47,535 bases of DNA from an uncultured Candidatus Saccharibacteria bacterium (GTDB lineage Bacteria > Patescibacteriota > Minisyncoccia > Phycocordibacterales > Phycocordibacteraceae): assembly GCA_964535425.1 (NCBI GenBank), contig CAZHSZ010000001.1, positions 32,489 to 80,023 of the forward strand, given 5' to 3'. Each line of letters opens with the position of its first letter. Within the stretch, counting starts at the first letter, position 1. The notes under the pieces are model-generated. The model saw only the letters and a program-made list of their open reading frames with translations, ran no database searches and was not told the origin of the DNA. This document shows positions 1,806 through 34,606 of this stretch, piece by piece. Made by a program: the position numbers and the translations under genes.

Positions 1806-2066
1806 ATGGAAGAACGCAAAGCGGTCCCGGTCACTATCCCTTCTGACACGCGACCGGCATTTGCAAATGCCACCCAAGTCACCGTATCGGACGATGCGGT
1901 CGTCGTGCAGTTCGCCTACGTGCGTCCGCGTGCCGCCTCCGGCCAATTGATTTCAGAGGTTGTGCTTTCCCCGAAGCACGCAATTGATTTCAGCCGCTCG
2001 CTTGATGCGACAATAAAAAAGCATTTTACGCGCCATTTGGACGCCGGAACTGAAACGACAGCATAG
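1806..2066 (+). CDS. DUF3467-like small protein
   Basis: 86 aa. Pattern FANATQVTVSDDAVVVQF...SEVVLSPKHAIDFSRSLDATIKKH resembles my recollection of the DUF3467 family (YAN..V.HS.EEF.LDF....V.R...SP.HAKR....L..NI..YE). Confidence 0.6.
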   Translation: MEERKAVPVTIPSDTRPAFANATQVTVSDDAVVVQFAYVRPRAASGQLISEVVLSPKHAIDFSRSLDATIKKHFTRHLDAGTETTA

Positions 2067-2149
2067 ATAGTGGGGAGAGGCGCCTGTCATATGAGTCTTA
2101 GGTGCTAGAATTTTACCGTATTCTGTATCCGGGCAGATACGTGAACGCA

Positions 2150-2899
2150 ATGAACCTATTTTCTTTACACAAAAACGATACGAGAATTCCTCAGGTCTTT
2201 TCGAATGCGACAATTCTGCCGAATCGGTACTCGTTTCGTTTGGTAAAACGCGTTCGCGCCCGAGAAGTCGTATCCCCACACATTGCGTACGACACGCCAC
2301 TTGAAAATACTCCTGTTTCTGAACCGGTGGTCGCGGAAGATATGGATGTTTCAGAGACGACTGCGTATGAGCGATTTGAACCTACGGAAAACGCTTTGGA
2401 CGATCGCAAAAGGAACTTCCTTAAGCTTGCGAGCCTGGTAGGGCTCGGCGTAGTTGCCGCTTCCGCACTGCCGGAAAAGGCGCAGGCGTACGTTATGGGC
2501 AGTAGTCCTACGAGTGGGGTAGTTGGCGTAAAGAATTCCGGGAACACCCGCATAAACCCCGCTACCGAAGACACGCTTCAGCTTTTGCTCGCCGGAAACG
2601 CCGTACTTAAAAAGACCGTTAGTCTTTCCTCATCGGGAACCGTGCATACGCCCGCTTCCGGAAAAAAGGTTCGCATTTACAATACGAAATTCTCGCTCGA
2701 CGCCACGATGACGAGCGTATCGTTTAGATTTACGTCGGGAGGGACCGATTTTGAAAAATACGTAGCGCCGCGCACGGGCGGTTTGTACGGTACGAATAAT
2801 CATCCTAACTTCAAGGAAGGCGGCACGGATGAGGCGGTATACTGCGCGATAAGCGGTACGGGGAATGTGCAGATAAACATCGATTACCTCGAGGTATAA
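2150..2899 (+). CDS. Putative Tat-exported protein (KR-type twin-arginine-like signal), beta-rich mature domain, unknown function
   Basis: The GTG at 2102 lies inside the promoter-like TGcTAGAAT (2103-2111), so ATG 2150 is the first usable in-frame start. Internal ATG 2342 gives MDVSETTAYERFEPTENALDDRKRNFLKLASLVGLGVVAASALPEKAQA, a textbook-positioned Tat signal (RNFLK motif, h-region, AQA cleavage site). I favour 2342 biologically and report the longer model for safety. Confidence 0.6.
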   Translation: MNLFSLHKNDTRIPQVFSNATILPNRYSFRLVKRVRAREVVSPHIAYDTPLENTPVSEPVVAEDMDVSETTAYERFEPTENALDDRKRNFLKLASLVGLGVVAASALPEKAQAYVMGSSPTSGVVGVKNSGNTRINPATEDTLQLLLAGNAVLKKTVSLSSSGTVHTPASGKKVRIYNTKFSLDATMTSVSFRFTSGGTDFEKYVAPRTGGLYGTNNHPNFKEGGTDEAVYCAISGTGNVQINIDYLEV

Positions 2900-2911
2900 T
2901 ACGATTGATAT

Positions 2912-5344
2912 ATGGCAACACGCGCAGTCGAGCACTTGTTCACCGGAGCCACCACTCCCTACACTTCGTACGACTCAACGAAGACCGTCCTCGGCGACCT
3001 TATCAAGCAGTACACGGGCGCGGGCGCTGAAGATAAGTATGCAGGCCCTATCCGCACCGGTCGTGATAGCGGTTTGACGACCACCTATGCGCTTGCGCGA
3101 CCTAACGAAACCTCGACCGCCGTTCCGGGAGTATTCCCTCATGTCGTGCGCTGGGCAGCAAAGAGCGGATACTACTCGACCGGTACGGTCGCAGTCTCCG
3201 CAACCGCAGTCACCGGTACCTCTACCGACTTTCTCGCTTCCGGTACGCCCGTTGGCGCCCGCATCGGCTTCGGCTCGACGAATCCGGCGTCCATTACGAC
3301 GTGGTACACCATAACGGCAATTGCGTCCGCCACCTCTCTCACCCTGCAGTCAAGCGCGGGCACGGTGGCGGGCGGCACCGCGTATGTCATCGATAAAACC
3401 TATAACCGCGATTGGGTGTTTCTAGCCGACAACGCCGCTGCCGCCGCAACGCGTCGCATAACCCTCTTCGAGTTCAACCGTGAGGATTCGGTCTTTACCT
3501 GGAAAGGATTCATCACGCAGACCTATCCGGCCGCGACCAACCACACCATCCGCGGTATGCGCGCGGTGTACGCAACCTACACCACCGGCACGGTCGCCGT
3601 ATCGGCCGCAACCGTAACCGGTACCTCAACTACCTGGAACACCGACCGTATATTCATAGGCTCGAGAATCGGATTCGGTTCCACCGACCCAACGCAAATA
3701 AGCACGTGGTACTACATAAATGCCGTGGGGTCCGATACCTCCATTACCATTCAGACGAACATAACCGCTTCCGGTACCGGAGGTACGGCGGCGAACATAA
3801 CCATCGCTTCGGGTACTGCGTACGTTATCGAAGACCTTCGCATACTTAATGCGAATACGAACGCCACGACTACGAACGGCGGCCTCTTTATGACCGCCGG
3901 TGTCTCCTATAACGACTTCGTGTCGACCGGTACGACCATAGCTGCCGCGGTGTCGACCGACAAGGTAAAGGCAAACTACTGGCTCGCGGACGCATCTACC
4001 GTGACCAACACTATCGCCGACGGGTGCGCGCTCGACGACCGCGACAGCTTCACTCAGCAATTTTGTTACGTGCTCGACAACACGGCGACACCGAAGGTAT
4101 ATAAATACAATTTCAGGAAAGCGCTCACGCTCGCTTCGGGGAAAGACACCACCTGTCTAGTGCTTACTACGGGAACCCAGGCGCTTACCGGTACCGTCTC
4201 CCAAAACAACAACGGCCGCATCGGTACCTTGGCTTCGGGCGGGGGAGTGAAGGCACTCTATTTCGCAACGACTACCCGCATCTACCGAGCGCCCGTCTCC
4301 GGTATCGTCGGAGGATCCTCTTCATGGGCGGCCGACAGCATGGTGGAAATACCCACGGGCGGCACCTCAACGTACACCGCCTCATCGGCACTAACCTCGG
4401 TTGAAATTTCCGACCAGATTGACCGCCTGCTTATTACAAACACGGGCGGCGGCGCAACCACTTGTAACCGCGCGTATATCACCCAATACAACACCATATC
4501 GACTCCGTTCGATCTTCCGTTTATGATCGATTCGCGCCAAATCGACCAATCCATCGCGGACAACAACGCCTGCCCGCATCCGAGTCCGGCTGGCGCGGCT
4601 ATTTCTACTTGGTCCGAAGCGGGTATCGCCTACATCGTCCGTGCTGGTACCACCTCGGCTACAAACCTTATGTACGCGGTGCCTATCGGTGCGGACTGGG
4701 ATTTCGCCTCCGGTACGGTAAAACAGCGTCTTATCACTCCATCGCTCGCCACTCCAAACGCGATTAAACTAAAGCGTGCGGTCGCAACGAATGAGGATTA
4801 TATGGGTGGCGGTTCACTGCGCTTACCGACCGAACCCTACCGCATGTATTACCGCACCGCGGGCATCAGCGACGATTCTGGTAGCTGGACGTTGATTGAC
4901 CGCACCGGCGACCTGACCACCGCGACCGCAGGCACCGAGATACAATTCATGTTCGAGTTCCGCACCGCAGGAACGTTTTGCCTGCCGAGTCGCATCTTCA
5001 GCGTCTCGTGCCTCTACGAGGACAACACCACCGACAGCCACTACCAGCCATCGGTCGCATTTTCTTCAACGACCAATAAGCGATTCGCGTGGCGCTTCTC
5101 GACCGCATTCGGCTCTACCGTGCCGCGTCTCAAGGTAACCCTTTATGACGCGGTGACCGACGGCGTACTTGCGACCGACGACACAACAACGCTTGCCGGT
5201 ACCTGGGAAAAATCCACAAATGACGGAAGTAGCTGGGGCGCCTACGATTCGAGCGACGTTACGAACGAAACGACCTATATACGCTTCACTCCCGCATCAC
5301 TTGCCGACAACATCAAGGTACGTGCCTTGCTTACTCAGTATTAG
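2912..5344 (+). CDS. Large (810 aa) Thr/Ser/Gly/Ala-rich beta-type protein, no signal peptide or TM, unknown function
   Basis: Uninterrupted 810-codon ORF 12 nt after the previous gene. Internal duplicated module (aa 88-160 and 222-306). No recognisable catalytic motif. A perfect TATAAT (2895-2900) lies 11 nt upstream of the ATG. Confidence 0.7.
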   Translation: MATRAVEHLFTGATTPYTSYDSTKTVLGDLIKQYTGAGAEDKYAGPIRTGRDSGLTTTYALARPNETSTAVPGVFPHVVRWAAKSGYYSTGTVAVSATAVTGTSTDFLASGTPVGARIGFGSTNPASITTWYTITAIASATSLTLQSSAGTVAGGTAYVIDKTYNRDWVFLADNAAAAATRRITLFEFNREDSVFTWKGFITQTYPAATNHTIRGMRAVYATYTTGTVAVSAATVTGTSTTWNTDRIFIGSRIGFGSTDPTQISTWYYINAVGSDTSITIQTNITASGTGGTAANITIASGTAYVIEDLRILNANTNATTTNGGLFMTAGVSYNDFVSTGTTIAAAVSTDKVKANYWLADASTVTNTIADGCALDDRDSFTQQFCYVLDNTATPKVYKYNFRKALTLASGKDTTCLVLTTGTQALTGTVSQNNNGRIGTLASGGGVKALYFATTTRIYRAPVSGIVGGSSSWAADSMVEIPTGGTSTYTASSALTSVEISDQIDRLLITNTGGGATTCNRAYITQYNTISTPFDLPFMIDSRQIDQSIADNNACPHPSPAGAAISTWSEAGIAYIVRAGTTSATNLMYAVPIGADWDFASGTVKQRLITPSLATPNAIKLKRAVATNEDYMGGGSLRLPTEPYRMYYRTAGISDDSGSWTLIDRTGDLTTATAGTEIQFMFEFRTAGTFCLPSRIFSVSCLYEDNTTDSHYQPSVAFSSTTNKRFAWRFSTAFGSTVPRLKVTLYDAVTDGVLATDDTTTLAGTWEKSTNDGSSWGAYDSSDVTNETTYIRFTPASLADNIKVRALLTQY

Positions 5345-5347
5345 CCT

Positions 5348-5980
5348 ATGGTTACCGTTACAGAAAACATGGATATTGCCGGAGATCCGAATCTCACCGT
5401 ATATTCGCCCGCGGGCGAGTACGCGGATACCGACTTGATTTTATGCGCGGATAAAAAAAATCCCGGACTCCCAATCGTCCAGCTTCAAGCCCAGTATCTC
5501 AGGTACGGACCGATTGTGTATCAGTACAACGCTCCGGAAGAACTCGGCGGTGCGCTCTTCGCACTTGACCCCGACTCAACGCACGACGCCGTTCTTTTAT
5601 ACAAGGAAGAGGAGGCGCGCAGAGCGGCACGAATGGGAGGGACGCTTACCCCTTCAGACCCCGTTCCGAGCCCTGATTCGAATGCTGACGCATCTCCCAC
5701 ACCAGAGGCCGAAGAAGAGGATGTAAAGTTTTTCAAGGAACAAGACGCGCAGGGAACTGCTACCAGTACGCCGGAAGTACCGACCACCGACCCTGAAATT
5801 CCCGTCATAGATGCGGGCGAAACTCTCGGCGTATCTACCTCTACCGACTCCGCCATTCCTGTTCCCGAACCAGAAATCCCGACCATCCAGCTTGAAACTT
5901 CAACGACGACTCCAATCGCGCAGCCTGAAGTACCTTCCGTATCAGTACCTGACACTACAGCTACGACCACGCCGGAGTAA
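5348..5980 (+). CDS. Hypothetical protein: globular N-terminal half plus acidic Pro/Thr/Glu-rich tail
   Basis: 210 aa, starting 3 nt after the 810-aa gene stop. The tail contains reiterated PE(V/I)P motifs (PEVPTTDPEIPVID, PEPEIPTIQ, QPEVPSVSVP) and is probably disordered. Confidence 0.55.
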   Translation: MVTVTENMDIAGDPNLTVYSPAGEYADTDLILCADKKNPGLPIVQLQAQYLRYGPIVYQYNAPEELGGALFALDPDSTHDAVLLYKEEEARRAARMGGTLTPSDPVPSPDSNADASPTPEAEEEDVKFFKEQDAQGTATSTPEVPTTDPEIPVIDAGETLGVSTSTDSAIPVPEPEIPTIQLETSTTTPIAQPEVPSVSVPDTTATTTPE

Positions 5981-5987
5981 TGCATCC

Positions 5988-6173
5988 ATGGCTCTTACGG
6001 ACATAGATTTCCAAGAAGGGGAGGGGCAGGATTTCATCGTCGAGCTTGCCCTTGGAGCCCTTGGTACTCCTGCGGACATTCTCACAGAGTCTGCGGAATC
6101 GCAGTACCCCGTGCTTGAGGCACCGCTCGTTACCGGAGGCGGAGGCGACGAAATCTTCATTCTGAACGATTAA
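5988..6173 (+). CDS. Small (61 aa) highly acidic hypothetical protein
   Basis: Internal ATG of track ORF 5811..6173, 7 nt after the previous stop. Product MALTDIDFQEGEGQDFIVELALGALGTPADILTESAESQYPVLEAPLVTGGGGDEIFILND. Supported mainly by operon spacing. Confidence 0.4.
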   Translation: MALTDIDFQEGEGQDFIVELALGALGTPADILTESAESQYPVLEAPLVTGGGGDEIFILND

Positions 6174-6209
6174 AAGCTGCTCCTGCGATCTCTCTGGTAT
6201 CCTGTAGGA

Positions 6210-6941
6210 ATGGGGAATTTTGCCAGCTTTGCCGAAACCTACGGCCCATATCTGGAAGAAATACGAAAACGACTCTATCGTCTTGCTATTGTCTTTACCG
6301 GAGCATTTATACTCGGCTTGTTTTCGACCAATATTTTTCTACCGTTTTTCGTGCATTTTCTCTCGATAGAAAACGTCACTATTGTCGCTACTTCACCCTT
6401 CCAACTCCTTGAGCTTGCGATGAGTGCCGGGTTTTTCTCCGCAATCGTGATTACGATACCGTTCGCCTTTCAACAAGCCTATGCATTTCTCAGGGACGGG
6501 CTGCTCCCGCGCGAGCGCCGTATGATCTTCCTGCTGATTCCGCTCTCCCTGTTCTTGTTTTTTCTCGGATTTTCCTACGGATTCGCAGTGATGTACTACG
6601 CCATAGGATTTATCGCAAATGTAAACGCCGGGTTCGGGATTACGAATCTATGGAGCGTTACGCAGTTCCTTTCACAAATCCTCATTACTTCAGCGTTATT
6701 GGGCTGCATTTTCGAGTTTCCAGTCGTTCTTTCGGCTCTTATCCGCTTACGCGTATGCTCCGTGGGTTTTCTGCGCCGAAACCGCCGCATCGCCTATGCC
6801 GGTATATTCATTTTTGTCGCTTTACTTCCCCCTACCGACGGGCTATCCTTCCTAGTGATGTCCCTTCCGCTCATACTTATGTACGAGTTGACCATTTTGG
6901 CTAACTCGTTTCGAGGGCGGAAAGAACTCTTAGAAACATAA
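6210..6941 (+). CDS. tatC: Sec-independent (twin-arginine) translocase subunit TatC
   Basis: 243 aa, polytopic (about 6 TM). N-terminal EEIRKRLYRLAIVFTGAFILG... and overall layout are typical for TatC. Directly followed by a tatA-like gene. Confidence 0.85.
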   Translation: MGNFASFAETYGPYLEEIRKRLYRLAIVFTGAFILGLFSTNIFLPFFVHFLSIENVTIVATSPFQLLELAMSAGFFSAIVITIPFAFQQAYAFLRDGLLPRERRMIFLLIPLSLFLFFLGFSYGFAVMYYAIGFIANVNAGFGITNLWSVTQFLSQILITSALLGCIFEFPVVLSALIRLRVCSVGFLRRNRRIAYAGIFIFVALLPPTDGLSFLVMSLPLILMYELTILANSFRGRKELLET

Positions 6942-6953
6942 TTTTTAGCACCT

Positions 6954-7112
6954 ATGTTTGGACTCGGCTCAAACGAACTCATCATCATTGCGGTCATTCT
7001 CGTGCTCTTGTTCGGCGCGACGCGTATTCCGGCTCTCACGAGGGGAATCGCTGACGCCATCCGCACGCTCCGCGGTGCGTTCAAGGACGAGGACAAGAAC
7101 AAAAAGGTCTAA
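6954..7112 (+). CDS. tatA: Twin-arginine translocase subunit TatA/E
   Basis: Not in the ORF track (52 aa). MFGLGSNELIIIAVILVLLFGATRIPALTRGIADAIRTLRGAFKDEDKNKKV has the canonical TatA layout: N-terminal TM, the hinge segment LLFGATRIP (canonical form LLFG..K.P), then an amphipathic helix. It starts 12 nt after tatC. Confidence 0.8.
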   Translation: MFGLGSNELIIIAVILVLLFGATRIPALTRGIADAIRTLRGAFKDEDKNKKV

Positions 7113-7130
7113 CTATTTCCTCGCTGAAAA

Positions 7131-7164
7131 ACACCGGCAACGCGCGCGTTGCCGGTGTTTTTCT
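7131..7164 (+). terminator. Rho-independent terminator closing the tat operon
   Basis: Stem acaccggcaac / gttgccggtgt with a GC-rich loop, followed by tttttc. This is the first strong terminator downstream of the promoter at 2103. Confidence 0.7.
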
Positions 7165-7241
7165 ATGGGGAAAGCGGGTAAAAAGGAGTCCTTCAAATGC
7201 TACGATAGTACTTGGGTTCTCTCGGGCGTTTTGCGCGCAGT

Positions 7242-10200
7242 ATGCATACTCTATTTACCTATTTTTCATCCTTCGTACGGAGCACGCCGGCGCGTATCGC
7301 CCTGTTGGCGCTTGCCGTTTTTTCATTCGCCACGTCGGCGTACGCTGAATACCGCCAGTTCCTACCCGGCGACGATATATACATCGGCGAATTCGTATTT
7401 GACGATGATTTTCAAGCCACCACGACTGCAGGATGTACGCTCACCGTGTACGATCCTTCCGGCACCCTTGTGGTAAACGCCGCCCCGATGACGGTTCCGG
7501 ATGCGAACAGCTACTACGTCTATTCTTTTACTCCGACCAATACCCCGGGGATTTGGCCGGCATATATAACCTGCGGTTCGGCACTAAATGGCAGCCTCGT
7601 GCGCATGGAGAAGACGTTTGAAATAACCGACCGCATCGTTTCCTCGTCGTCCGTTGCAGCACTCGTAAACGCGAACACTAATACCGCAATCGCGACCGCT
7701 TCCTCATCTCTCGCTTCGACACTTCCAAATTCCATTTGGGCGTTCTCCGGAAGAACCCTCACTTCTTTCGGAACGCTCGTTTCGGATATATGGACGAACG
7801 GAACGCGCTCGCTCACCACCTTCGGCACGCTTGCCGCAGACATATGGGCTTCCGGCACACGGACACTCACCGGCTTCGGCACGCTCGCGGCCGATGTCTG
7901 GACGAATGGCACCCGTACGCTCACGGGCGCAGGACTCACAAGCGGAAGTCTCGCAACGCTTAGCGATGTACAGAACGCTTCTTCATCCATCGCCGCGGTC
8001 GTGAATGCGAATACGAATAGCACGGTAAACACTGCTTCTTCCTCTCTTGCCGCAGTCATAAACGGAAACACGAATACGACGGTGCAGACCGCTTCCTCGT
8101 CTCTTGCGGCAGTCATAAACGCGAACACAAACGCAACCGTGCTTACCGCGTCCACGTCGCTCGGCCTTTCGCTGAGCGGAATCGCTTCATCGATAACCGC
8201 GCTTCCGGCAGCCGTCTGGAACGTCGCGACGACAACCATGACGACGCCGGGCACTATCGGCTACGTGCTCGCGAACAACATCGATATCGCTATTTCAGCA
8301 GTATCTGGCGGGGGCGGGGGACTCACCGCGGCTGATGTCTGGGCGTACGGCACCCGCTCACTCACGAGCGCGAGCCTCACCTCCGGAACGCTTGCCACTC
8401 TGCTAGACGTACAGACCGCCTCAAGCTCCGTCGTCGCGCTCGTAAACGCGAACACTAATAGCGCAACCTCCGGAATCACGAGCGCCGTAAACAGCAATAC
8501 GGACGCAACCGTGCTTGCCGCCTCTTCCTCGCTTGCCACCTCCATTCCCGTCAATGTCTGGAATTCTTCCGTGCGAACCCTCTCATCGTTCGGTACGCTC
8601 GTAAGCGATATCTGGTCCGCGGGAAGCCGGACACTCACCGGCTTCGGCACCTTGGCCGCAGACGTATGGACGAACGGCACCAGGACGCTCACCGGCGCAG
8701 GACTCTCTGCAGGATCTCTTGCGCTTCAGTCTGACGTAACGACAGCTTCCTCTTCTCTTGGCAGCGCGATTACGAACAGCCAGACCGCGATAAACGGCAA
8801 TACTGATACGCGCGTCGGTATAGCGTCGAGCTCGATTGCCGCGGTAGTGAACGCGAATACGAATGCGGCCGTACTCGCTGCATCCACCTCTCTTGGTACC
8901 GCAATCTCGAACAGCCAGACCGCTATCAATGCAAACACGGATAGCAGGGTAGGCACCGCCTCGTCATCCCTTGCTGCGGTCATAAACGCAAACACAAATA
9001 CGACGGTACAGACTGCGTCCTCCTCTCTTGCTGCAGTCATCAATGCGAATACGAACGCAGCCGTGCTAACCGCATCCACCTCGCTTGGGTCAACGCTTTC
9101 AAGCATCACTGCCTCTATAGCGCTCATACCCTCTAACGTCTGGGCGGCAGGAAGCCGCACACTCACCGGCTTCGGCACCTTGGCCGCAGATGTATGGACA
9201 AACGGTACGCGCACTCTGACCGGCGCCGGACTTTCCTCGGGCTCTCTCGCTACACTCTCTGACGTGCAGACGGCCTCTTCTTCGATTGCGGCTGTCGTAA
9301 ATGCGAATACCGATACCCGGGTAACGACCGCTTCTTCATCCCTTGCGACTTCGATACCAATCAACGTATGGAATTCTTCAGTACGAACCCTTTCCTCATT
9401 CGGCACGCTCGCAAGCGATGTCTGGAGTGCAGCGACACGCACCCTTACCGGCGCAGGGCTCACAACGGGAAGTCTCGCAACGCTTAGCGATGTTCAAACC
9501 GCTACCTCGTCTCTCGGCTCGGCAATCACCAACAGCCAGACCGCTATCAATGCGAATACGGATACTCGTGTCGGTATCGCAACCAGTTCGCTCGCCGCGG
9601 TCGTAAACGCGAACACCAACGCTACCGTGCTTACTGCCTCGACCTCGCTCGGCTCGACCCTTTCCTCAATCGCCTCCTCAATCACTTCCATACCAGCTAA
9701 CGTATGGGCGGCTGGCACTCGAACCCTCACCGGCTTTGGTACGCTCGCCGCAGACGTATGGACAAACGGTACGCGCACTCTGACCGGCGCCTCGCTTTCA
9801 AGCGGTTCGCTCGCACTCCAGTCGGACGTCACGACAGCTTCAAGTTCGCTCGGGTCAGCTATCACCGCAAGCCAGACGGCGATAAACAGCAATACCGATA
9901 CGCGCGTCGGCATTGCCTCAAGCTCAATCGCTGCGGTCGTGAACGCCAATACCGATAGCAGGGTAACGGTCGCCACTTCTTCCTTGGCTGCTGTGATAAA
10001 CACAAATACGAATAGTGCTGTACTGACCGCTTCCACCTCGCTCGGCTCATCCATAAGCGCGCTCCCAGCGGCAGTCTGGAACGTCGCGACGACGACCATG
10101 ACGACCGTCGGTTCGATCGGAAAAGTGCTCGCTACCAATATCGATACCGTCCTCTCGACGATCGGCGGCGGCTCACTCACCCCTGCCGACATATGGGCAT

Positions 10201-11507
10201 ATGGCACCCGCTCACTCACGAGCGCTGCGCTTAACTCAGGAGCGCTTGCGACCAACGTTGATATCAATAACGCCACGACGAGTGTGAACACGACGATCAG
10301 CACGGCCTCGTCATCCCTTGCCACCGTCATAAACGCCAACACGAACGCAACCGTTCTCACCGCATCCACATCCCTTGCGTCCGGCATCGCAAGCGGATTC
10401 GCCTCGGTGCCGGCGAACGTCTGGGCGTATTCTTCCCGTACGCTTACGGCGTTCGGCACGCTCGCTACCGACGTGTGGAGCGCGGCAACCCGTACCTTGA
10501 CCGGGGCAGGGCTTACAAGCGGAAGCCTTGCAACCCAAACTGACATACAGAATGCGACCACTTCGCTCGCGGCCGCGATTGCAACAAAAGCGACTCTGGT
10601 AAACCAGCAGGCAGGATGGACGGTGCGCCAGTCGGACTTCGGCAGCGTGCTTGCGGGCTCAACTTTCAGGACAAAAGTCACCGTCCTGAACTACCAGAGT
10701 GCGCCGACGACCCCGTTTGCAACTCCGACCGTCACGGTATACGACGCGTCGCGAAACGTAGTCGCAAGCGGAGTCGCGATGACCGCACTCTCTACCGGCG
10801 TGTACGAGTATACGTACTCGGTGGCGTCGCTTGCCGTGCAAGGACAGTGGGAGGCGGTCGTCTCGACGCAGGTTGAATCAGGAAAGACCATTACGACAAA
10901 CGACTACTTCGAAGTTGCGGGCTCGCCGGCGCAGGTGCTAATCCAAAGCATGGGCTCTTTGGCAACGCCAAACATTACGGCGAATGTGCGCATCACGAAC
11001 GAAGGCCTGGCTGACTACGAATACCAGTACGAATGGTGCGTTGTTTCCGATATCAACAACCCTTGCGGCGGCGGAAACGATACGTACTATGCGTCGGCCG
11101 CTAAGCTCATAAACGCCGGAGACAACTTCGATACTGTTCTTTCCGCTACTGTTCCTACCGAAGGTATCTACTACTTCAAGACCGTCGTTTACTTCGGCAC
11201 CGAGTCCTCAGGCGCTTCCCGCCAGTTCACCACAAGCCTCTACGTTCCTCCGACACCGCCCACCGGCGGCGGTCATGGGGGCGGGGGAGGAGGCGGGAGC
11301 GGAAGCTCGGGTAGCGACAGCGGTTCATGCGGCATCGCAGACATAAACTGCGACGGCAAGGTAAGCGCGGTGGACTTCTCCATCATGCTTGCGTACTGGA
11401 AGACGTTCTCGCCGTTCGCGAACGCCCGCGTGGACCTGAACTTGGACAAGAAAGTCGATGCGGTCGACTTCTCAATACTCCTTTATCACTGGGGTAAACG
11501 CTACTAA
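7242..11507 (+). CDS. Giant secreted repeat-fibre protein with C-terminal dockerin module
   Basis: Track ORF starts at TTG 7212. ATG 7242 gives the Sec-type signal MHTLFTYFSSFVRSTPARIALLALAVFSFATSAYA. Layout: Ig-like domain, about 950 aa of two interleaved short repeat families, second Ig-like domain, another beta domain, Gly/Ser linker, dockerin. TGcTACGAT -10 at 7198-7206. Confidence 0.85.
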   Translation: MHTLFTYFSSFVRSTPARIALLALAVFSFATSAYAEYRQFLPGDDIYIGEFVFDDDFQATTTAGCTLTVYDPSGTLVVNAAPMTVPDANSYYVYSFTPTNTPGIWPAYITCGSALNGSLVRMEKTFEITDRIVSSSSVAALVNANTNTAIATASSSLASTLPNSIWAFSGRTLTSFGTLVSDIWTNGTRSLTTFGTLAADIWASGTRTLTGFGTLAADVWTNGTRTLTGAGLTSGSLATLSDVQNASSSIAAVVNANTNSTVNTASSSLAAVINGNTNTTVQTASSSLAAVINANTNATVLTASTSLGLSLSGIASSITALPAAVWNVATTTMTTPGTIGYVLANNIDIAISAVSGGGGGLTAADVWAYGTRSLTSASLTSGTLATLLDVQTASSSVVALVNANTNSATSGITSAVNSNTDATVLAASSSLATSIPVNVWNSSVRTLSSFGTLVSDIWSAGSRTLTGFGTLAADVWTNGTRTLTGAGLSAGSLALQSDVTTASSSLGSAITNSQTAINGNTDTRVGIASSSIAAVVNANTNAAVLAASTSLGTAISNSQTAINANTDSRVGTASSSLAAVINANTNTTVQTASSSLAAVINANTNAAVLTASTSLGSTLSSITASIALIPSNVWAAGSRTLTGFGTLAADVWTNGTRTLTGAGLSSGSLATLSDVQTASSSIAAVVNANTDTRVTTASSSLATSIPINVWNSSVRTLSSFGTLASDVWSAATRTLTGAGLTTGSLATLSDVQTATSSLGSAITNSQTAINANTDTRVGIATSSLAAVVNANTNATVLTASTSLGSTLSSIASSITSIPANVWAAGTRTLTGFGTLAADVWTNGTRTLTGASLSSGSLALQSDVTTASSSLGSAITASQTAINSNTDTRVGIASSSIAAVVNANTDSRVTVATSSLAAVINTNTNSAVLTASTSLGSSISALPAAVWNVATTTMTTVGSIGKVLATNIDTVLSTIGGGSLTPADIWAYGTRSLTSAALNSGALATNVDINNATTSVNTTISTASSSLATVINANTNATVLTASTSLASGIASGFASVPANVWAYSSRTLTAFGTLATDVWSAATRTLTGAGLTSGSLATQTDIQNATTSLAAAIATKATLVNQQAGWTVRQSDFGSVLAGSTFRTKVTVLNYQSAPTTPFATPTVTVYDASRNVVASGVAMTALSTGVYEYTYSVASLAVQGQWEAVVSTQVESGKTITTNDYFEVAGSPAQVLIQSMGSLATPNITANVRITNEGLADYEYQYEWCVVSDINNPCGGGNDTYYASAAKLINAGDNFDTVLSATVPTEGIYYFKTVVYFGTESSGASRQFTTSLYVPPTPPTGGGHGGGGGGGSGSSGSDSGSCGIADINCDGKVSAVDFSIMLAYWKTFSPFANARVDLNLDKKVDAVDFSILLYHWGKRY
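7640..10590 (+). repeat. Coding tandem/interspersed repeat array inside the giant gene
   Basis: About 19 copies of a 16-18 aa motif x(V/I)Wxx(G/S)(T/S)R(T/S)LTxFGTLAx. About 18 copies of a 19-aa motif (V/I)N(A/G/S/T)NT(N/D)xxVxxAS(S/T)SLAA. Some DNA blocks recur identically, e.g. gtatggacaaacggtacgcgcactctgaccggcgcc at about 9191 and about 9753. Confidence 0.9.
11328..11504 (+). other. Dockerin (type I-like) module of the giant protein
   Basis: Two EF-hand-like Ca-binding segments, DINCDGKVSAVDFSIML and DLNLDKKVDAVDFSILL (D-x-N-x-D...D spacing), each followed by a helix. Preceded by the PPTPPTGGGHGGGGGGGSGSSGSDSGS linker. Confidence 0.8.
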
Positions 11508-11510
11508 TTT

Positions 11511-12356
11511 ATGAAAAATTTTAAAACGTTCACGCTGGCTTTTCTTCTCTTTACGGTAGCTGTGCCCATTCATGCGGCGGAACTTTCGATTGAGGCGCCG
11601 CTTGGGGGTGTAGGCTCGCCTATACTACTCCCGGTAGTATTCACTGCCGGCGATGAGTCTGTGAACGTCGTGGAGGGTTCCATTACCATTCCTGAGGGAA
11701 TGGTTGTCGAGCGGCTGGATACCTCGGGTTCCGCGTTTCCCTTGTTCGCCTCGGGACCAACCTATATGCCTTCGTCCCGTACGGTCGAGTTCACCGCAGG
11801 AAGCGAGAGCAACATTGGCGCGCACGAGGTCGCGCTCGTATTCGTGATACAGGCGCGTGCCGAAAAGGAAGCAATGTATGAAGTTTCTCCGGGAACAATA
11901 GCCGCGTACGCGAGCGACGGAGCTGGTACGAAAATTGCCGTAGCCGCACACCCGACACAAGTCAGCGTGGGAGCAAAAGGGAGCGTGCAGGTAGATGCGT
12001 TCCCGAAGGGTGCTCCTCAAACGCTTCTTGCAGAGATAGGGAAGGAAGATTCTCTGTTTGAAGGGAAGTGGTTCCTTACCTTCTTCGGAGGCGCACAGGG
12101 CGCTCCCGTAGCGCGCTATGAGATACGTGAAGGCTGGTGGCGCTTCCCGGTATCAGCGGACCGCTATTACGTCTTGAAAGACCAGGCGCGCCGTACGACG
12201 CTGTTCGTTACTGCAATCGATACGAACGGTAATCGCACGAACATACTCGTACCTGCAGCATACCCTTGGGCCGAGCGTGCCGTACTCTTTGCTATCGCGC
12301 TCATAGCCGCCGTTGCCGCGTATCTTCTTATGCGCCGTCTGCGCAAATACAAATAA
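11511..12356 (+). CDS. Membrane-anchored surface protein with cohesin-like N-terminal domain
   Basis: 281 aa. Sec signal MKNFKTFTLAFLLFTVAVPIHA. Beta-sandwich-like region LSIEAPLGGVGSPILLPVVFTAGDESVNVVEGSITIPEGMVVERLD.... C-terminal TM plus basic tail AVLFAIALIAAVAAYLLMRRLRKYK. The cohesin assignment is weaker than for the next gene. Confidence 0.55.
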   Translation: MKNFKTFTLAFLLFTVAVPIHAAELSIEAPLGGVGSPILLPVVFTAGDESVNVVEGSITIPEGMVVERLDTSGSAFPLFASGPTYMPSSRTVEFTAGSESNIGAHEVALVFVIQARAEKEAMYEVSPGTIAAYASDGAGTKIAVAAHPTQVSVGAKGSVQVDAFPKGAPQTLLAEIGKEDSLFEGKWFLTFFGGAQGAPVARYEIREGWWRFPVSADRYYVLKDQARRTTLFVTAIDTNGNRTNILVPAAYPWAERAVLFAIALIAAVAAYLLMRRLRKYK

Positions 12357-12357
12357 T

Positions 12358-13830
12358 ATGAAACTTCGCCGAAGCATCGTTTTTGCGTTTGCACTCCTTA
12401 TCGGGGCTCTGCCGGGCATTGCGTCCGCAGCCACGCTTTCAGTGTCGCCTGCCGCAACGTCGGTCCACGCGGGCGACATCGTCACCATACGCCTCGTCGC
12501 AAACACCCAAGGGACAGCGATAAACCAGGGAGAGGGTACGCTTCGATTCCCGACCGATATGCTCGACGTCATCTCTACGAGCAAGTCGGGCTCCATATTC
12601 ACCCTCTGGGTGGAAGAACCCACATATTCAAATACTGCCGGCACGATGCATTTTGACGGCGGCGTCCCGACGCCAGGCTTTAACGGCTCTGCCGGCACTA
12701 TCCTCTCAGTCACTTTTCATGCGAAGAAATCCGGCACTGCAACGCTTACGCTTTCTGACGCCGCGCTTCGCGCAAACGACGGACTCGGCACGGATGTCTT
12801 GAATTACGCAGGCGGCGGCCAGATAACCATTACCGAATCGGCACCTGCACCCGCTCCAACACCAACCACTCCACCCACTACCAGCACGACTCCGGAGACC
12901 TCTTCCGGCTCAAGCAAAGACGGAGCAATACTCAGCCTCACTTCAAATACGCACAGCGACCAGAACGCGTGGTATCAGGCGAACAATCCGCTCATGAGCT
13001 GGCAGCTGCCTGCGGGAGCTACAGCAATCCAGACAATTCTCGATGCGGACCCGAACGCCGTACCGACCGTAACCTATAAGCCGGCAATTACCGAGAAACG
13101 TATTGCGAACCTTGAAGACGGCATCTGGTACTTCAACATCCGCGCGCGCATTGGCACCCTATGGGGTCCGGTCTCAAGTTACGCGCTCCGTGTCGATACG
13201 AAGGCACCGGAGCTCGCAAAGGCTTCTTTTGACTATGACGCCGCAAGCCAGCGCGTCGTCATCTCCAGCATCTCGGCTACGGACCAAACCTCCGGCATAG
13301 CCCGCTACGAAATTTCGATTGACGGCGGGGAAGCGGCTGCCATTTCCGCTGAGGAGGCTCTAGGTGGCACTTACGCGTTTAGCTACGCGAAAGCTGGCAT
13401 CCATACGCTTGTACTCCGCGCATTTGACGCTTCGGGCAATTACGCGGAAACCGCGGGCACAATAAACATCCCGACGCCGCTTGCTGACCAAACGCTCTGG
13501 AACATAGGCGGGTTCAATATAACGTTTGCATGGTTCATCATCCTCATCCTCCTCATCTCGCTTCTCTCGCTTGTCGCGGCGGCGACCGCTTGGTACAAGC
13601 TCTATAGGCTTCGCGCAGGCGCGAAGGACCGCACCGAAAAGCGCGACAAGCTCCTGCATCGCTCGCTCCGCATCTACAAGGAAGACCTTGAGCGCCACCT
13701 CCGGACCCTTGAGCGCGCAGGCCAGAAGCGTGAACTCACGGATGAAGAAGCCGACATAAACGAAGACCTCAAAAAGAATGTCGACGACCTCGAGCGCTAC
13801 CTCGCCAAGGAGTTCAAAAAATTCGATTAG
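12358..13830 (+). CDS. Cohesin-domain surface protein with Pro/Thr linker, Ig-like domains, TM anchor and cytoplasmic coiled-coil tail
   Basis: Start moved to ATG 12358 (MKLRRSIVFAFALLIGALPGIASA), 1 nt after the previous stop. Cohesin-like LSVSPAATSVHAGDIVTIRLVANTQGTAINQGEGTLRFPTDMLDVISTS...GTILSVTFHAKKSGTATLTLSDAAL. Linker APAPAPTPTTPPTTSTTPE. TM FAWFIILILLISLLSLVAAATAWY. Confidence 0.75.
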   Translation: MKLRRSIVFAFALLIGALPGIASAATLSVSPAATSVHAGDIVTIRLVANTQGTAINQGEGTLRFPTDMLDVISTSKSGSIFTLWVEEPTYSNTAGTMHFDGGVPTPGFNGSAGTILSVTFHAKKSGTATLTLSDAALRANDGLGTDVLNYAGGGQITITESAPAPAPTPTTPPTTSTTPETSSGSSKDGAILSLTSNTHSDQNAWYQANNPLMSWQLPAGATAIQTILDADPNAVPTVTYKPAITEKRIANLEDGIWYFNIRARIGTLWGPVSSYALRVDTKAPELAKASFDYDAASQRVVISSISATDQTSGIARYEISIDGGEAAAISAEEALGGTYAFSYAKAGIHTLVLRAFDASGNYAETAGTINIPTPLADQTLWNIGGFNITFAWFIILILLISLLSLVAAATAWYKLYRLRAGAKDRTEKRDKLLHRSLRIYKEDLERHLRTLERAGQKRELTDEEADINEDLKKNVDDLERYLAKEFKKFD

Positions 13831-13847
13831 ACAGGGAAGTCGGATAC

Positions 13848-13874
13848 GAAAAACGCTTCCGGAAAACGGAAGCG
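13848..13874 (-). terminator. Minus-strand intrinsic terminator (possibly also serving the + strand cohesin operon)
   Basis: Stem cgcttccg / cggaagcg. On the minus strand it is followed by TTTTTC; on the plus strand no U-tract follows. Confidence 0.5.
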
Positions 13875-13998
13875 TGAAGGTGTGACGCAGAGAATCCAAA
13901 AGGAGCAAAAAAACGAGACTCCAAATTAAAGAACCGACTCCGGGCTCTTAGCTGTAGGGTTCTCCCAAATGAACCGCCCTGGCTAATCTCCGCGTCAC
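13848..13998 (-). ncRNA. Candidate sRNA B (about 150 nt), unknown family
   Basis: Minus-strand promoter-like TTGACC-N17-TACGGT just upstream. The 5' segment GTGACGC (13998-13992) pairs with GCGTCAC (13888-13882) immediately before the terminator hairpin. No coding potential. Confidence 0.25.
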
Positions 13999-14112
13999 AT
14001 AACTACCGTACGTGACCCTTTGATACGGGTCAATCATTCCACTCTCTCCCTACTCCCCCGCGAGATAAAAAACGGCCCACTCTAAGGCTTTCTAGGTAAT
14101 CTCGGGAACCCG

Positions 14113-14280
14113 AGAAAAGAAAACCGTCCGCAATCCTTAAGGATTCGGACGGAATAGAAGTAGCGCGGGGTTGGACTATTGGGGCGAATCATTCATATCT
14201 CTATTCATGGGAATCGGGGTCACACGAACAGAAACTGCCATGAGGCAAAATGACGCGCTTGTCTCACCAACCCCGCACTA
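14113..14280 (-). ncRNA. Candidate sRNA A (about 170 nt), unknown family
   Basis: Minus-strand TTGACA (14312-14307) plus TG-TATAAG (14292-14287). The RNA would start at a 10-bp helix, GCGGGGTTGG (14276-14267) / CCAACCCCGC (14174-14165), enclosing about 90 nt. It would end at the hairpin ccgtccgaatcc/ggattgcggacgg followed by TTTTCTTTTCTC. Confidence 0.3.
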
Positions 14281-29748: not shown

Positions 29749-32064
29749 CTACGCCGCTTCGGAAAGCGTGTCAGCGCGCGTAGCTTCCACAGTGCCGCCG
29801 CGCATACGGAGCGTCAAGGAAAGCGTCTTGTCGCGGGTAGCGCGCCGGTCGCGCAGAAGCGAGTACGCGTATACCTGTATTCTCTTATTCTCAAAGATGC
29901 GCTCAATGGCTTGCGCGAATTCTCCTGAAAACGATTCAGGCGTGCTGAGGCGAATGGAAAGCGCGGGAACATTCCCCGGATAGAGGGATATTTCCACCGG
30001 AATGTCCTCCTCGGGAGCGCCCGTAAATTTGAATTTGCGGAGCTCGTACGCAAAGAGTGCGGACACGAGGTCTTCCGTATAGCGCACATGACCCGCGGGC
30101 CGCTCCCTCTTCAGAAGCTCGGCATTAAACGGTACGACGATGCCGGGCGCCGCTTCAAGGTCGCGGGAGCCGAGCACCGGCACCATTGGCGGCGCTTCCC
30201 CGCGCGCGGCGAGCGGCACGTAGCCTTTGGGCGCTACAAATTTACGCTCATCAAGCACGGCAGCGGCGGCGGCGGCCGCGCGTGGCGCGTTCACCCCAAT
30301 CGCAACCACGTTCTCGCCGATGCGCTCGAGCACGTCGCGCGTTCCCCGCGGAAGGAGTTCTATCTCTTCCTGGCTTACGCCGAGCGGGTCCGCGACGCCG
30401 ACGAACTGTATGTGCGGCGCGGACCGGAGGCGCGACGCGACCGGCACTTCCGGGTTATTCGGGAGATAGACTCTTTCCACGGCGTCTGTAAGATCGCCAC
30501 CCTCAAGGTAAGACGCGAGCTCGGCGGTCGAGCGCTTGAAGCCGGTACAGGCGATGTATGCATCGGCAGTTATAGGTGCTCCGTTTGAACGTCGTATCGG
30601 TCTTTTATCACCGCCATAGAAGATGAGTGGTTTTCCCGGTTCTCCCGCAAGAGCCCCTCCAGTGAACCCTATATCGTCGACGCGCGCCTGCACAAACTCC
30701 ACGACATCCTTGCGGTTCTGGCGCGCGAGCACGTTCAGAAGCTTCTGGTAACGGGGACGCAGCTTGTCCGTAATCTGCGTTTCAGAGATCAGGTAGATCT
30801 TCTGCACGTTCGAAACCACATCGGCTCCTTCCTCAAACTGCCGGGCGAGGAACTCGATCATGGTGCGCGCCGAATCCTTTGACCCGCCGATGACTATGGT
30901 TTTCGGAGGGCGAAGCGGTTCGCGACGGCGGTCAGCCATCTTCTCAAAGGCCTCAAGGCTCGTCGAAATCAAGGGGAACGCGTTCGGGTCCTGCCGCTCA
31001 AGCACGTCTTTTGCGAGGCCGTCCGGCCGTATCGGGAAGCCGTAGTCAGGCGTGCCGAGCCCGGTCGCGTATATTATCCGGTCGGTGAATATCTGCTTTT
31101 GCTCTGCCGTCCCGTCCGGGAACGAGCGCTCAAGCGTAACGATAGAGAGCCCGCGGCGGCGCGTCGTGTTCGGCTCGATAGAGACGACTCTCGTTTCAAG
31201 GGAAAGATTGCGGAACAGGGTCGCGCCGAGCGTTCCGGCGAGCACCGCCTCGTCCTCATTCGTGATGTAGTCCTTGTTTGAAAACGCTTCCGGGGCGATA
31301 AGGTGTCCGGACGGCTTATTGATGCTGCCGCCGCGAAGCGGGTCTCCGTCGTTTCGCTCCCCGGGAGATACGCTGTTTGGAGTGTACGCGCGCGCTGATA
31401 TGTTGAGATTAGGATCGTAATCCGGAAGCTTATCCGGACCAATCATAGTCCGGCTGTTCATATCCCACGCCGGCCCGTGCGGCGCTGCGAATATGCCGCC
31501 CACCCGCGGCGCCGCATCGACGACGAGCGTTTCCGCCGCAAGCGCAGGGTCTATGCGCGCTGTCTGGCCGAAATACGCAATGCCGTTTACTCCGGCGCCA
31601 ATTTGAAGCGCCGGGATATAGTCTTTGCTTTTTATCCGCTCCCAGGTTGAGTTTGAGAGCGATTCCAGATGGTTCTCCACGAAGTCGTCCGTCTCGCCGA
31701 ACGCTTCCGAAAGTAGCGCCGCGGCGTACGGATTGGTGCGCGAAAGCTTCTCGACCGACCGGTAGTAATCCTCCTCGAGCGGCGTCAAATTACCCTCGTC
31801 ACGCTTAGCGTCCAGCGTATATCTATCGCGCACAAGTGTCCCGTCCTCGTTCTTCCCTACCACGTACCGGCGGAGCCGGCCGCGCAATTCTTCGGACCCT
31901 TCAAGCGAACGGAACAGCACGTAGAGACTTTTAAAGAAATTTTCTTTTATATATTCATACCCGAGCTCGTTCTCGCCGAGGTCGAACCCGACGCGTTCCC
32001 GTATCTCTTCGGCAGTGTCCGAAGGTCGTTCCGGGCGGGGCCTGAAAGCGCTTTCTTTTCCCAT
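29749..32064 (-). CDS. Large (771 aa) two-Rossmann FAD/NAD(P)-binding oxidoreductase-like protein with unique N- and C-terminal domains
   Basis: Start set to ATG 32064 (TGtTATACT plus 7 nt upstream); the track start is GTG 32097. Motifs: dinucleotide-binding LQIGAGVNGIAYFG, IIYATGLG, a second VIGGSKDSARTMIEFL, and YIACTGF. This order matches two-dinucleotide-binding-domain flavoproteins. Confidence 0.65.
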   Translation of the reverse strand: MGKESAFRPRPERPSDTAEEIRERVGFDLGENELGYEYIKENFFKSLYVLFRSLEGSEELRGRLRRYVVGKNEDGTLVRDRYTLDAKRDEGNLTPLEEDYYRSVEKLSRTNPYAAALLSEAFGETDDFVENHLESLSNSTWERIKSKDYIPALQIGAGVNGIAYFGQTARIDPALAAETLVVDAAPRVGGIFAAPHGPAWDMNSRTMIGPDKLPDYDPNLNISARAYTPNSVSPGERNDGDPLRGGSINKPSGHLIAPEAFSNKDYITNEDEAVLAGTLGATLFRNLSLETRVVSIEPNTTRRRGLSIVTLERSFPDGTAEQKQIFTDRIIYATGLGTPDYGFPIRPDGLAKDVLERQDPNAFPLISTSLEAFEKMADRRREPLRPPKTIVIGGSKDSARTMIEFLARQFEEGADVVSNVQKIYLISETQITDKLRPRYQKLLNVLARQNRKDVVEFVQARVDDIGFTGGALAGEPGKPLIFYGGDKRPIRRSNGAPITADAYIACTGFKRSTAELASYLEGGDLTDAVERVYLPNNPEVPVASRLRSAPHIQFVGVADPLGVSQEEIELLPRGTRDVLERIGENVVAIGVNAPRAAAAAAAVLDERKFVAPKGYVPLAARGEAPPMVPVLGSRDLEAAPGIVVPFNAELLKRERPAGHVRYTEDLVSALFAYELRKFKFTGAPEEDIPVEISLYPGNVPALSIRLSTPESFSGEFAQAIERIFENKRIQVYAYSLLRDRRATRDKTLSLTLRMRGGTVEATRADTLSEAA

Positions 32065-32200
32065 GTCCGAAAGTATAACAAAGGAAGGCGCCGCCACCGG
32101 TATCGCAAAAGCGTTAGTCGATGAGTATCTCTACGAGTATTTACTTATTGTATTTTTAGTGTAATAATATATCCGTTAGGCCATTACGGAGGTAATTTAG

Positions 32201-34298: not shown

Positions 34299-34534
34299 AT
34301 AGGTTGATTCTAGCAAATATAAACCTACTACGGGGAAGTGTCCTGCGAAGACGCAGGCACGCATCGCCTACAAGTTTTGGCTCGTCGTCACTCGCCAAAC
34401 TCGCAGGCCCCGCTCGCGGTTTTTTCTGCTGAAAAAACATCGCTCCGCGCTTCGATTCTCCGACACAGCGTTTCCCAAACGCTGCTTAGGGTCACAACGC
34501 ACGATGCCGCCTTTCGGCGGCATACGTGTCGTTG

Positions 34535-34606
34535 TGACCCTACGGGGAATCGAACCCCGATTTAAAGCTTGAGAAGCTTCCGTCCTAACCGTTAGACGAT
34601 AGGGCC
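34535..34606 (-). tRNA. tRNA-Glu (anticodon CUC), no encoded CCA
   Basis: Hand-folded: acceptor GGCCCTA/TAGGGTC (one G-U pair), D-arm GTCTAACGGTTAGGAC typical of tRNA-Glu, anticodon stem GAAGC/GCTTT with loop TTCTCAA, T-arm CGGGG-TTCGATT-CCCCG, discriminator A. Confidence 0.9.

Follow-up and report, generated by a model that had tools for sequence, protein, structure and literature searches.

Which proteins does a twin-arginine translocation (Tat) system carry when the operon that encodes it holds no recognizable redox protein? The question is raised by a 47,535-nt stretch of DNA from an uncultured bacterium (GenBank assembly GCA_964535425.1, contig CAZHSZ010000001.1, positions 32,489–80,023 of the forward strand; this whole stretch is called the window below), in which six tightly packed plus-strand genes span positions 2150–7112 and are closed by a strong terminator. 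They encode a protein with a Tat-type signal (open reading frame 1, ORF1), three signal-less proteins of 810, 210, and 61 amino acids (aa), TatC, and TatA. ORF1 is very likely a Tat precursor and the cognate cargo of the adjacent, dedicated TatAC. We give about an even chance to the fuller reading, in which a dedicated minimal TatAC carries ORF1 as its cargo and the phage-derived cassette formed by the other three proteins is co-exported with it as a hitch-hiker. The genes and the signal are as follows.

2150–2899, plus strand: ORF1, 249 aa; 113-aa presequence and 136-aa mature jellyroll-type beta-sandwich domain (nt 2489–2896).
2399–2488, plus strand: Tat signal core of ORF1; DDRKRNFLK, moderately hydrophobic h-region, AQA signal-peptidase site.
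2912–5344, plus strand: gene of the 810-aa protein (85.9 kDa), signal-less, all-beta.
5348–5980, plus strand: gene of the 210-aa protein; conserved N-terminal domain of about 85 aa and acidic Pro/Thr-rich tail.
5988–6173, plus strand: gene of the 61-aa protein; acidic, isoelectric point 4.05, no Lys or Arg.
6210–6941, plus strand: tatC, 243 aa; PF00902 match.
6954–7112, plus strand: tatA, 52 aa; PF02416 match, sole TatA-family gene in the operon.

The presequence of ORF1 consists, in order, of an N-terminal motif (NRYSFRLV), a variable linker, D84-x-x-K87-R88-x-F90-L-K, an h-region, and A-Q-A followed by Tyr. The signal sequence DRKRNFLKLASLVGLGVVAASALPEKAQA, reported in the preliminary description, was confirmed at nt 2402–2488; the strict S/T-R-R-x-F-L-K consensus with two consecutive Arg is not matched, the window protein reading D-D-R-K-R-N-F-L-K, with Lys for the first Arg. 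Conservation was assessed in 35 aligned ORF1 homologues and in 81 orthologues (the window and 80 species representatives). Throughout the 35 homologues, D-x-x-[KR]-R-x-F-L-K, the 20-residue h-region, and the A-x-A site are all conserved, with R88 and F90 invariant. Among the orthologues, the second Arg is kept in 81/81 and Phe in 79/81; K-R is found in 69/81, with two more that have Leu for Phe (about 71 together), and R-R in 10/81. Asp stands three residues ahead of the pair in 73 of the 79 matched orthologues, and all 79 have small residues at -3 and -1 relative to the predicted cleavage site. The Tat-signal hidden Markov model (HMM) TIGR01409 matches 26 of the 35 family members at E <= 0.1 (best E = 6.3e-6), and the h-region of the window protein has a 19-residue Kyte-Doolittle mean of 1.77, versus 2.3–3.1 for general-secretion (Sec) signals and anchors of neighboring genes.

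The start of ORF1 bears on the length of this signal. An internal start at ATG 2342, considered in the preliminary description, is ruled out: the first 34 residues from ATG 2150 are conserved in the closest relatives with an excess of third-position changes, and ORF1 therefore starts at ATG 2150 with a presequence of 113 aa. GTG 2102 was rejected as a start, since the same conservation favors ATG 2150. The n-region is unusually long, with 86 residues before K-R, and a long conserved n-region recalls hydrogenase small subunits. Far 5' of the Tat motif lies a family-wide N-terminal motif, M-(L)LPxxYSFRLV followed by basic residues (window 2150–2251); a remote relative, P0317, repeats the N-terminal motif four times in tandem.

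TatC matches PF00902 at 1.7e-37 (129.7 bits, cut-off 25.1) and TatA matches PF02416 at 1.3e-10 (40.8 bits, cut-off 21); the operon has one tatA and one tatC, and no tatB-specific match was found in it. The signal-binding residues of TatC are kept as E17 (E15 in Escherichia coli), F93 (F94), and E102 (E103), of which F93 and E102 are invariant in 32 relatives; Leu stands at the Y100 position and Tyr at the H12 position. In the structure of TatBC with a substrate, the second Arg forms a salt bridge with TatC E103, the first Arg reaches E15 via water only, and the Phe packs on F94 (PMC13323110). The residues kept here and the contacts in that structure fit a family that tolerates Lys at the first position and never at the second.

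Linkage was examined by a scan with an ORF1 profile of one genome per GTDB species, which gave 80 loci, all in Patescibacteria-type metagenome-assembled genomes (MAGs); the linkage counts use the 50 species loci with at least 10.4 kb beyond the ORF1 start. tatC lies downstream of ORF1 on the same strand in 48/50, elsewhere in the locus in 2/50, and is absent from none; all six operon genes are present in 45/50. When metagenome contigs were searched in reverse with a TatC profile, ORF1 was found in nine of ten loci with 10 kb of upstream sequence; in the tenth, and in the five apparent misses among loci with 5 kb upstream, cluster genes lie at the contig edge. The expectation that tatC co-occurs with relatives of these genes is borne out for ORF1 homologues (48/50, the other two nearby); homologues of the 810-aa protein occur also in 64 viral loci of IMG/VR without Tat genes in the flanks. 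ORF1 as the cognate cargo of TatAC, as first proposed, is strongly supported by the conservation of [KR]-R-x-F-L-K, h-region, and AxA, by the TIGR01409 matches, and by the tatC linkage.

What the cassette is was approached through its relatives. The 810-, 210-, and 61-aa products lack a signal peptide or transmembrane segment, as had been reported (maximum 19-residue Kyte-Doolittle means 0.95, 0.73, and 1.17), and an in-frame stop just upstream of ATG 2912 leaves no hidden N-terminal extension of the 810-aa protein. The earlier statement that no redox-cofactor motif is present also held: neither a cofactor domain of Pfam or NCBIfam nor a conserved cluster of Cys or His was found. ORF1 has one near-invariant Cys only and no conserved Cys cluster, and the 810-aa protein has a single near-invariant Cys. 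The family scans assigned none of the three proteins to Pfam, NCBIfam, or PHROG; the 810-aa protein gave a weak tail-fiber match in an inserted domain, and matches to ArlG and ZirU in the scans of these proteins and ORF1 were at chance level and were discarded. When IMG/VR was searched with the 810 profile, full-length homologues (residues about 5–808, 39–54% identity, contig G+C fraction 0.31–0.64) were found at 64 loci, whose flanks contain none of ORF1, tatC, or tatA. These are genuine phages: the viral contig L176 (UViG_3300033121_001732) carries genes for a large terminase and a tail tube protein (phrog_4542, 1.4e-24), and in L196, L203, and L179 the gene just 5' of the 810 homologue matches tail-fiber, minor-tail, or virion-structural PHROGs at 1e-19 to 1e-70. 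In HMM searches of the viral loci, 16 had a homologue of the 61-aa protein directly 3' of the 810 homologue; in seven, a 210-aa N-domain homologue lay beside the latter. A neighbor-joining tree (a distance method with midpoint root, to be taken as indicative) groups 37 of the 38 cellular 810 sequences as a single clade that lies within a set of phage clades. No homologue was found by tblastn of the 810-aa protein against 50,697 GenBank phage records. The 810 family, which lacks a full-length PHROG and is frequent in contigs of uncultivated phages, is a phage tail-module family without annotation, and, judged from these comparisons, the 810-, 210-, and 61-aa genes appear to be a cassette derived from a phage tail-fiber module. 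The L176 large terminase (10118–14113, 1332 aa) may contain an intein or a fused domain, given its additional matches to endonuclease and helicase PHROGs.

Structure prediction gave an all-beta model of the 810-aa protein with a predicted local distance difference test score (pLDDT) of 81.6 and a predicted template modeling score (pTM) of 0.80. Searched against PDB, the model matched phage endosialidase tailspikes and generic propellers at template modeling (TM) scores of 0.24–0.28, and against BFVD uncharacterized Caudovirales proteins, tail tubular protein B, and a tailspike at about 0.2; profile searches against PDB sequences returned nothing for the 810-aa protein or the 210-aa N-domain. 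Identities as a sialidase or a podovirus nozzle were not adopted, TM-scores being only 0.2–0.28. The protein is predicted from its model to be a propeller-type core with two inserted tail-fiber-like beta domains. In 75 of 76 loci the gene immediately after ORF1 is 810-like. The family falls into length classes of about 800–817 aa and 884–901 aa, and in about ten species (L025, L028, L029, L037, L050, L052, L064, L071, L085, and L086) the distance from ORF1 to tatC is about 9.3 kb versus the usual 4 kb or so, a spacing that suggests two or three tandem 810-like paralogues.

The two small cassette proteins had both been described as acidic. This is correct for the 61-aa protein, whose family consensus is MALTDINFQEGEGQDF...GGNIFIMSE; the 210-aa protein is acidic in its C-terminal Pro/Thr-rich tail only, its first 85 residues or so forming the conserved domain. 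Their proposed part as Tat escorts or chaperones is weakened, as homologues adjoin 810 homologues in phage contigs without Tat genes; they are partners of the 810-aa protein first and not Tat-specific factors, and they may be its assembly factors or adaptors. As a speculation, the acidic 61-aa protein, devoid of basic residues, could bind the N-terminal motif of ORF1.

The mature domain of ORF1 has phage relatives of its own. Its AlphaFold model is confident only for residues of about 150–249 (pLDDT about 80), which form an eight-stranded jellyroll-type sandwich. A structure search with the model gave only weak generic jellyroll matches (Ena pilin, satellite tobacco mosaic virus capsid, phage cement protein; E of about 1e-3), which were not used for function; no Pfam, NCBIfam, or PHROG family was found for ORF1, and a profile search against PDB sequences was empty. 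The same jellyroll, at 49–53% identity, is the C-terminal domain of a 350-aa signal-less protein in two viral contigs, where the adjoining gene was read by eye as a portal gene. ORF1-type jellyrolls also end several signal-less proteins of 314–621 aa, and five jellyroll-ended signal-less proteins appear, as judged by eye, to have fiber-like repeats.

Different gene sets occupy the slot between the ORF1-like gene and tatC. A profile search of 1.84 billion representatives gave 362 related clusters, and some related sequences share the N-terminal motif, the Tat signal, and a repeated VGVKN..N.RINPATEETL unit, yet end in other domains. Related Patescibacteria keep the ORF1-like gene and tatCA and swap in other phage-tail-like signal-less proteins. 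Three variant gene orders were as follows.

307 aa, 1693 aa, 304 aa, tatC, tatA; dockerin and cohesin genes alongside.
245 aa, 1793 aa, 307 aa, tatC, tatA.
547 aa, 890 aa, 301 aa, tatC.

Such variants have a giant protein of 890–1793 aa and a glucosaminidase-like protein of about 300 aa. The 1693-aa protein of L169, which was the large protein whose sequence was examined, has no signal, and the 890- and 1793-aa proteins have weak tail-protein PHROG matches. All three proteins of about 300 aa score just below the threshold of a glucosaminidase family (23–29 bits vs. 30.2); the one whose sequence was read, the 304-aa protein of L169, lacks a signal and has a Pro/Thr-rich tail resembling that of the 210-aa protein. 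In a further variant, the jellyroll ORF1 is followed by four small proteins of 144, 248, 267, and 269 aa and then by a 77-aa protein that ends in ...GNIFIMSE like the 61-aa family; the 144-aa protein matches phrog_5417 at 2e-21 and, weakly, tail-fiber families. Variant clusters of these kinds occur at L001/L011, L099, L113, L126, L129, L139, L164, and L169–L173. The idea that the type-B cluster's four proteins correspond to parts of the 810-aa protein was considered and rejected (hhalign probability < 1%).

From these findings the following course of events is proposed. ORF1 would be made with its 113-aa presequence, and K-R-x-F-L-K would be recognized by TatC; the folded 136-aa jellyroll would then cross the membrane, and signal peptidase would cut between A-Q-A and Tyr. 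On the sequence evidence, recognition, export, and cleavage of ORF1 by TatAC are well-supported predictions. The 810/210/61 cassette, captured from a phage, would fold in the cytoplasm as in a phage-infected cell, and its proteins, having no signal of their own, would leave as passengers of ORF1. On the surface, beside the cohesin/dockerin scaffold of the neighboring genes, the cassette would probably serve attachment to, or attack on, a partner cell. We infer, then, that ORF1 is exported folded and afterwards cleaved, and that the cassette leaves with it and acts on the surface; hitch-hiker export of the 810-aa protein is plausible. The pattern known from hitch-hiking is seen in that the signal is on ORF1 only and its partners have none; no sign of cofactor insertion before export was found. 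On this reading, the dependence on Tat would come from phage-type proteins that must be exported pre-folded, and not from a redox cofactor.

Several observations weigh against this reading. The window ORF1 itself scores 15.1 bits against TIGR01409 (E = 0.022), under the curated cut-off of 16.7. When pairwise divergence was compared across 46 canonical loci (Mantel test, a weak kind of evidence), that of the 810-aa protein was uncorrelated with that of ORF1, TatC, or TatA (r = 0.03–0.05, Mantel p > 0.25). In one genome the order is ORF1, 62 aa, tatC, tatA, tatA, and the 810-/210-like pair lies 350 kb away and is of a phage-like branch. The phage ORF1-like and 810-like proteins sit in different modules (head and tail-fiber, respectively), and no ancestral partnership is therefore evident. 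Passengers of 86 kDa here and 180–190 kDa in related clusters would, to our knowledge, be at or above the size of the largest Tat cargoes. In favor of the reading, a heuristic motif scan of 1.3 Mb (the window and the 80 loci) found no other consistent Tat-motif family, a result limited to these flanks; the residual matches were TatC's own helices and Sec-type signals. One candidate second substrate, the cohesin-like 505-aa protein (MKLRRSIVF), was rejected because its homologues have K-R or single basic residues, as is typical of Sec.

The same divergence comparison showed that ORF1, TatC, and TatA diverge together (r = 0.31–0.60, Mantel p <= 0.0005), as do the 810-, 210-, and 61-aa proteins (r = 0.37–0.47), and that the two small proteins correlate with both groups (against ORF1, r = 0.38 for the 61-aa and 0.34 for the 210-aa protein). 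We read this as two modules, an export module that follows the organism and a cassette with its own history, which the small proteins may bridge.

Alternatively, only ORF1 would be exported by TatAC, the cassette being intracellular (e.g., folding or modifying ORF1) or exported otherwise and the slot being a co-regulated place or a hot spot for phage genes; this is the most serious alternative, though in our judgment a doubtful one. It agrees with the lack of co-divergence of the 810-aa protein with ORF1 or TatC, with the existence of an ORF1-61-tatCA cluster without the 810/210 pair, with the company that 61- and 210-like genes keep with 810 homologues in Tat-free phages, and with passengers of 1693–1793 aa, which exceed the Tat cargo sizes known to us. 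It is opposed by the near-constant place of an 810-like gene after ORF1 (75/76), and by four cluster types that all put signal-less phage-tail-like genes in one slot; some types hold signal-less glucosaminidase-like proteins, whose substrate is outside the membrane, and the cassette proteins, relatives of virion proteins that act outside cells, carry no other export signal. Co-export as a hitch-hiker is favored because unrelated signal-less virion-type proteins, some of them wall-hydrolase-like, always fill the slot and have relatives that act outside cells.

Far less can be said for the view that the ORF1 segment is an ordinary Sec signal or an uncleaved anchor, that K-R-x-F-L-K is incidental, and that tatCA serves other substrates. 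The predominance of K-R over R-R, the sub-threshold score of the window protein, and the 86 residues before K-R would suit it. They are set against a second Arg without exception and a Phe missing from only two orthologues, R-R in ten of them, Tat-signal HMM matches in most of the 35 members, an h-region of lower hydrophobicity than those of neighboring Sec signals and anchors, near-universal linkage and co-divergence with tatC, and the want of another Tat-motif family in the flanks scanned, and we consider this view very unlikely. Least probable of all, and to our minds hardly credible, is a functionless prophage remnant next to tatCA by accident, for although the three cassette proteins and the ORF1 jellyroll all have phage homologues, the gene order is shared by about 50 species with ORFs intact and full-length, 37 of 38 cellular 810 sequences share one clade, the window has no capsid, portal, terminase, or integrase gene and its larger ORFs checked elsewhere are housekeeping genes, and neither flanking phage hallmark genes or attachment (att) sites nor pseudogenization in many lineages was seen.

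Around the operon, the following features were noted.

2084–2111, plus strand: promoter-like site CTGTCA-16 nt-TAGAAT with TG upstream; weak, 9/12 matches.
7126–7164, plus strand: intrinsic terminator; 17-bp stem, 4-nt loop, T-run.
7212–13830, plus strand: conserved trio of a dockerin repeat protein and two cohesin-like proteins (context only).

The intergenic gaps of 12, 3, 7, 36, and 12 nt are exactly those first reported. A strong terminator only after tatA was likewise found, with a hairpin at about 7126–7163 and a T-run (-34.9 kcal/mol, z = -7.2 against shuffles), which folding detected and a simple terminator scan missed; terminator-like matches inside the operon are at chance level (nine found vs. 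6.5 expected). The extended -10 promoter of the preliminary description fares less well: the site is present, but such sites occur in the region at chance rate (four found vs. 4.0 expected from shuffles).

Of the trio, the 1431-aa repeat protein has a Sec-type signal, an MG2 domain, and a C-terminal dockerin, and the cohesin-like proteins of 281 and about 490 aa each have an N-terminal signal and a membrane anchor, which is C-terminal in the 281-aa protein. In the 505-aa cohesin-like ORF, for which ATG 12361 (MKLRRS...) is the probable start, a membrane helix lies near residue 403 and the C-terminal tail is charged. A dockerin protein lies within the locus in 47/50 and a cohesin-like protein in 42/50, downstream or divergently upstream; this co-location, in either orientation, supports the single envelope neighborhood proposed earlier. 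Dockerin/cohesin neighbors were seen at the window, L001, L002, L004, L169, and most of L007–L086.

Elsewhere the window is ordinary chromosome, the larger ORFs checked encoding cysteinyl-tRNA synthetase (CysRS), DnaB, a penicillin-binding protein (PBP), class I lysyl-tRNA synthetase (LysRS), and a P-type ATPase. An 86-aa ORF (1806–2066, plus strand) directly 5' of the operon has no family match; its conservation, at about 80% identity, is limited to L008 and L009, the two closest relatives. A 782-aa ORF at 29749–32097 (minus strand) has no Pfam match at 1e-5, and the only tRNA gene of the window is tRNA-Glu (CTC) at 34534–34606 (minus strand). Homologues bear the names Paceibacterota, Parcubacteria, and Patescibacteria. 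Many of the L007–L086 MAGs are titled 'uncultured Candidatus Saccharibacteria' or 'Gammaproteobacteria'; gene content and named relatives suggest Paceibacteria, and the titles look unreliable.

The locus occurs in at least 80 species-level lineages, of whose Tat system it is the only visible home, and it provides a setting for an unannotated protein family with over 1,500 members as well as for the phage relatives of that family. A large part of bacterial diversity belongs to Patescibacteria, most of which appear to live attached to other cells; outside Saccharibacteria hardly any attachment molecules are known. If the cassette is exported, it would provide a cofactor-independent reason to keep Tat in a minimal genome, an extension of hitch-hiking to passengers that are swappable, non-redox, and unusually large, and concrete host-recognition candidates in Paceibacteria, a few of which are now available in co-culture. 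A bolder proposal, which we put forward tentatively and think rather unlikely, is that TatAC with ORF1 as carrier is the route by which the ultrasmall Paceibacteria export interchangeable phage tail-fiber-type cassettes (86 to about 190 kDa) and so build a phage-derived attachment or attack organelle on a cohesin/dockerin scaffold; if so, both the use of the Tat pathway and the kind of phage domestication would be new.

Natural Lys-Arg Tat signals include those of Salmonella TtrB and the plant Rieske protein. ORF1 resembles them in having Lys for the first Arg and keeping the second, in line with the TatBC-substrate structure (PMC13323110), and differs in that K-R is the majority state of a whole family (about 71/81) and R-R the minority. 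A close arrangement is phoD-tatAd-tatCd of Bacillus subtilis, a minimal TatAC translocase co-expressed with a single known cargo (PMC6708511). Both have TatA and TatC without TatB, an operon shared with the gene of a Tat-signal cargo, and an apparent dedication to it; here, however, the cargo is a small jellyroll without a recognizable enzyme or cofactor motif, the order is cargo, tatC, tatA with three signal-less phage-derived genes between cargo and tatC, and K-R predominates in the signal, whose n-region is very long. Hitch-hiker co-export is represented by hydrogenase-2, HybOC, of E. coli (Rodrigue et al. 1999, as cited in PMC6708511) and by the ternary complex PaoABC (PMC4273604). As in these, the sole Tat signal is on a small subunit and the larger subunits are encoded alongside without one; HybOC and PaoABC, by contrast, are cofactor-bearing redox enzymes whose assembly before export was shown experimentally, whereas here no cofactor motif occurs and the putative complex would carry swappable phage-type passengers. 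The 810-aa protein is like proteins of tail-fiber modules in uncultivated phages (e.g., L176) over its full length, N-terminus included, with a 61-like gene 3' and sometimes a 210-like gene beside it; unlike it, the phage copies adjoin tail-fiber, tail-tube, and terminase genes and have neither Tat genes nor ORF1 nearby. In published surveys, Paceibacteria are noted only as having TatA and TatC (PMC9166423), and our literature searches found no description of the ORF1-810-210-61-tatCA cluster. From the PhoD arrangement and the hitch-hiker complexes, the cluster differs in the absence of a cofactor, in a mainly K-R signal within a 113-aa presequence, in exchangeable putative passengers of phage origin, and in conservation across a whole class of Patescibacteria.

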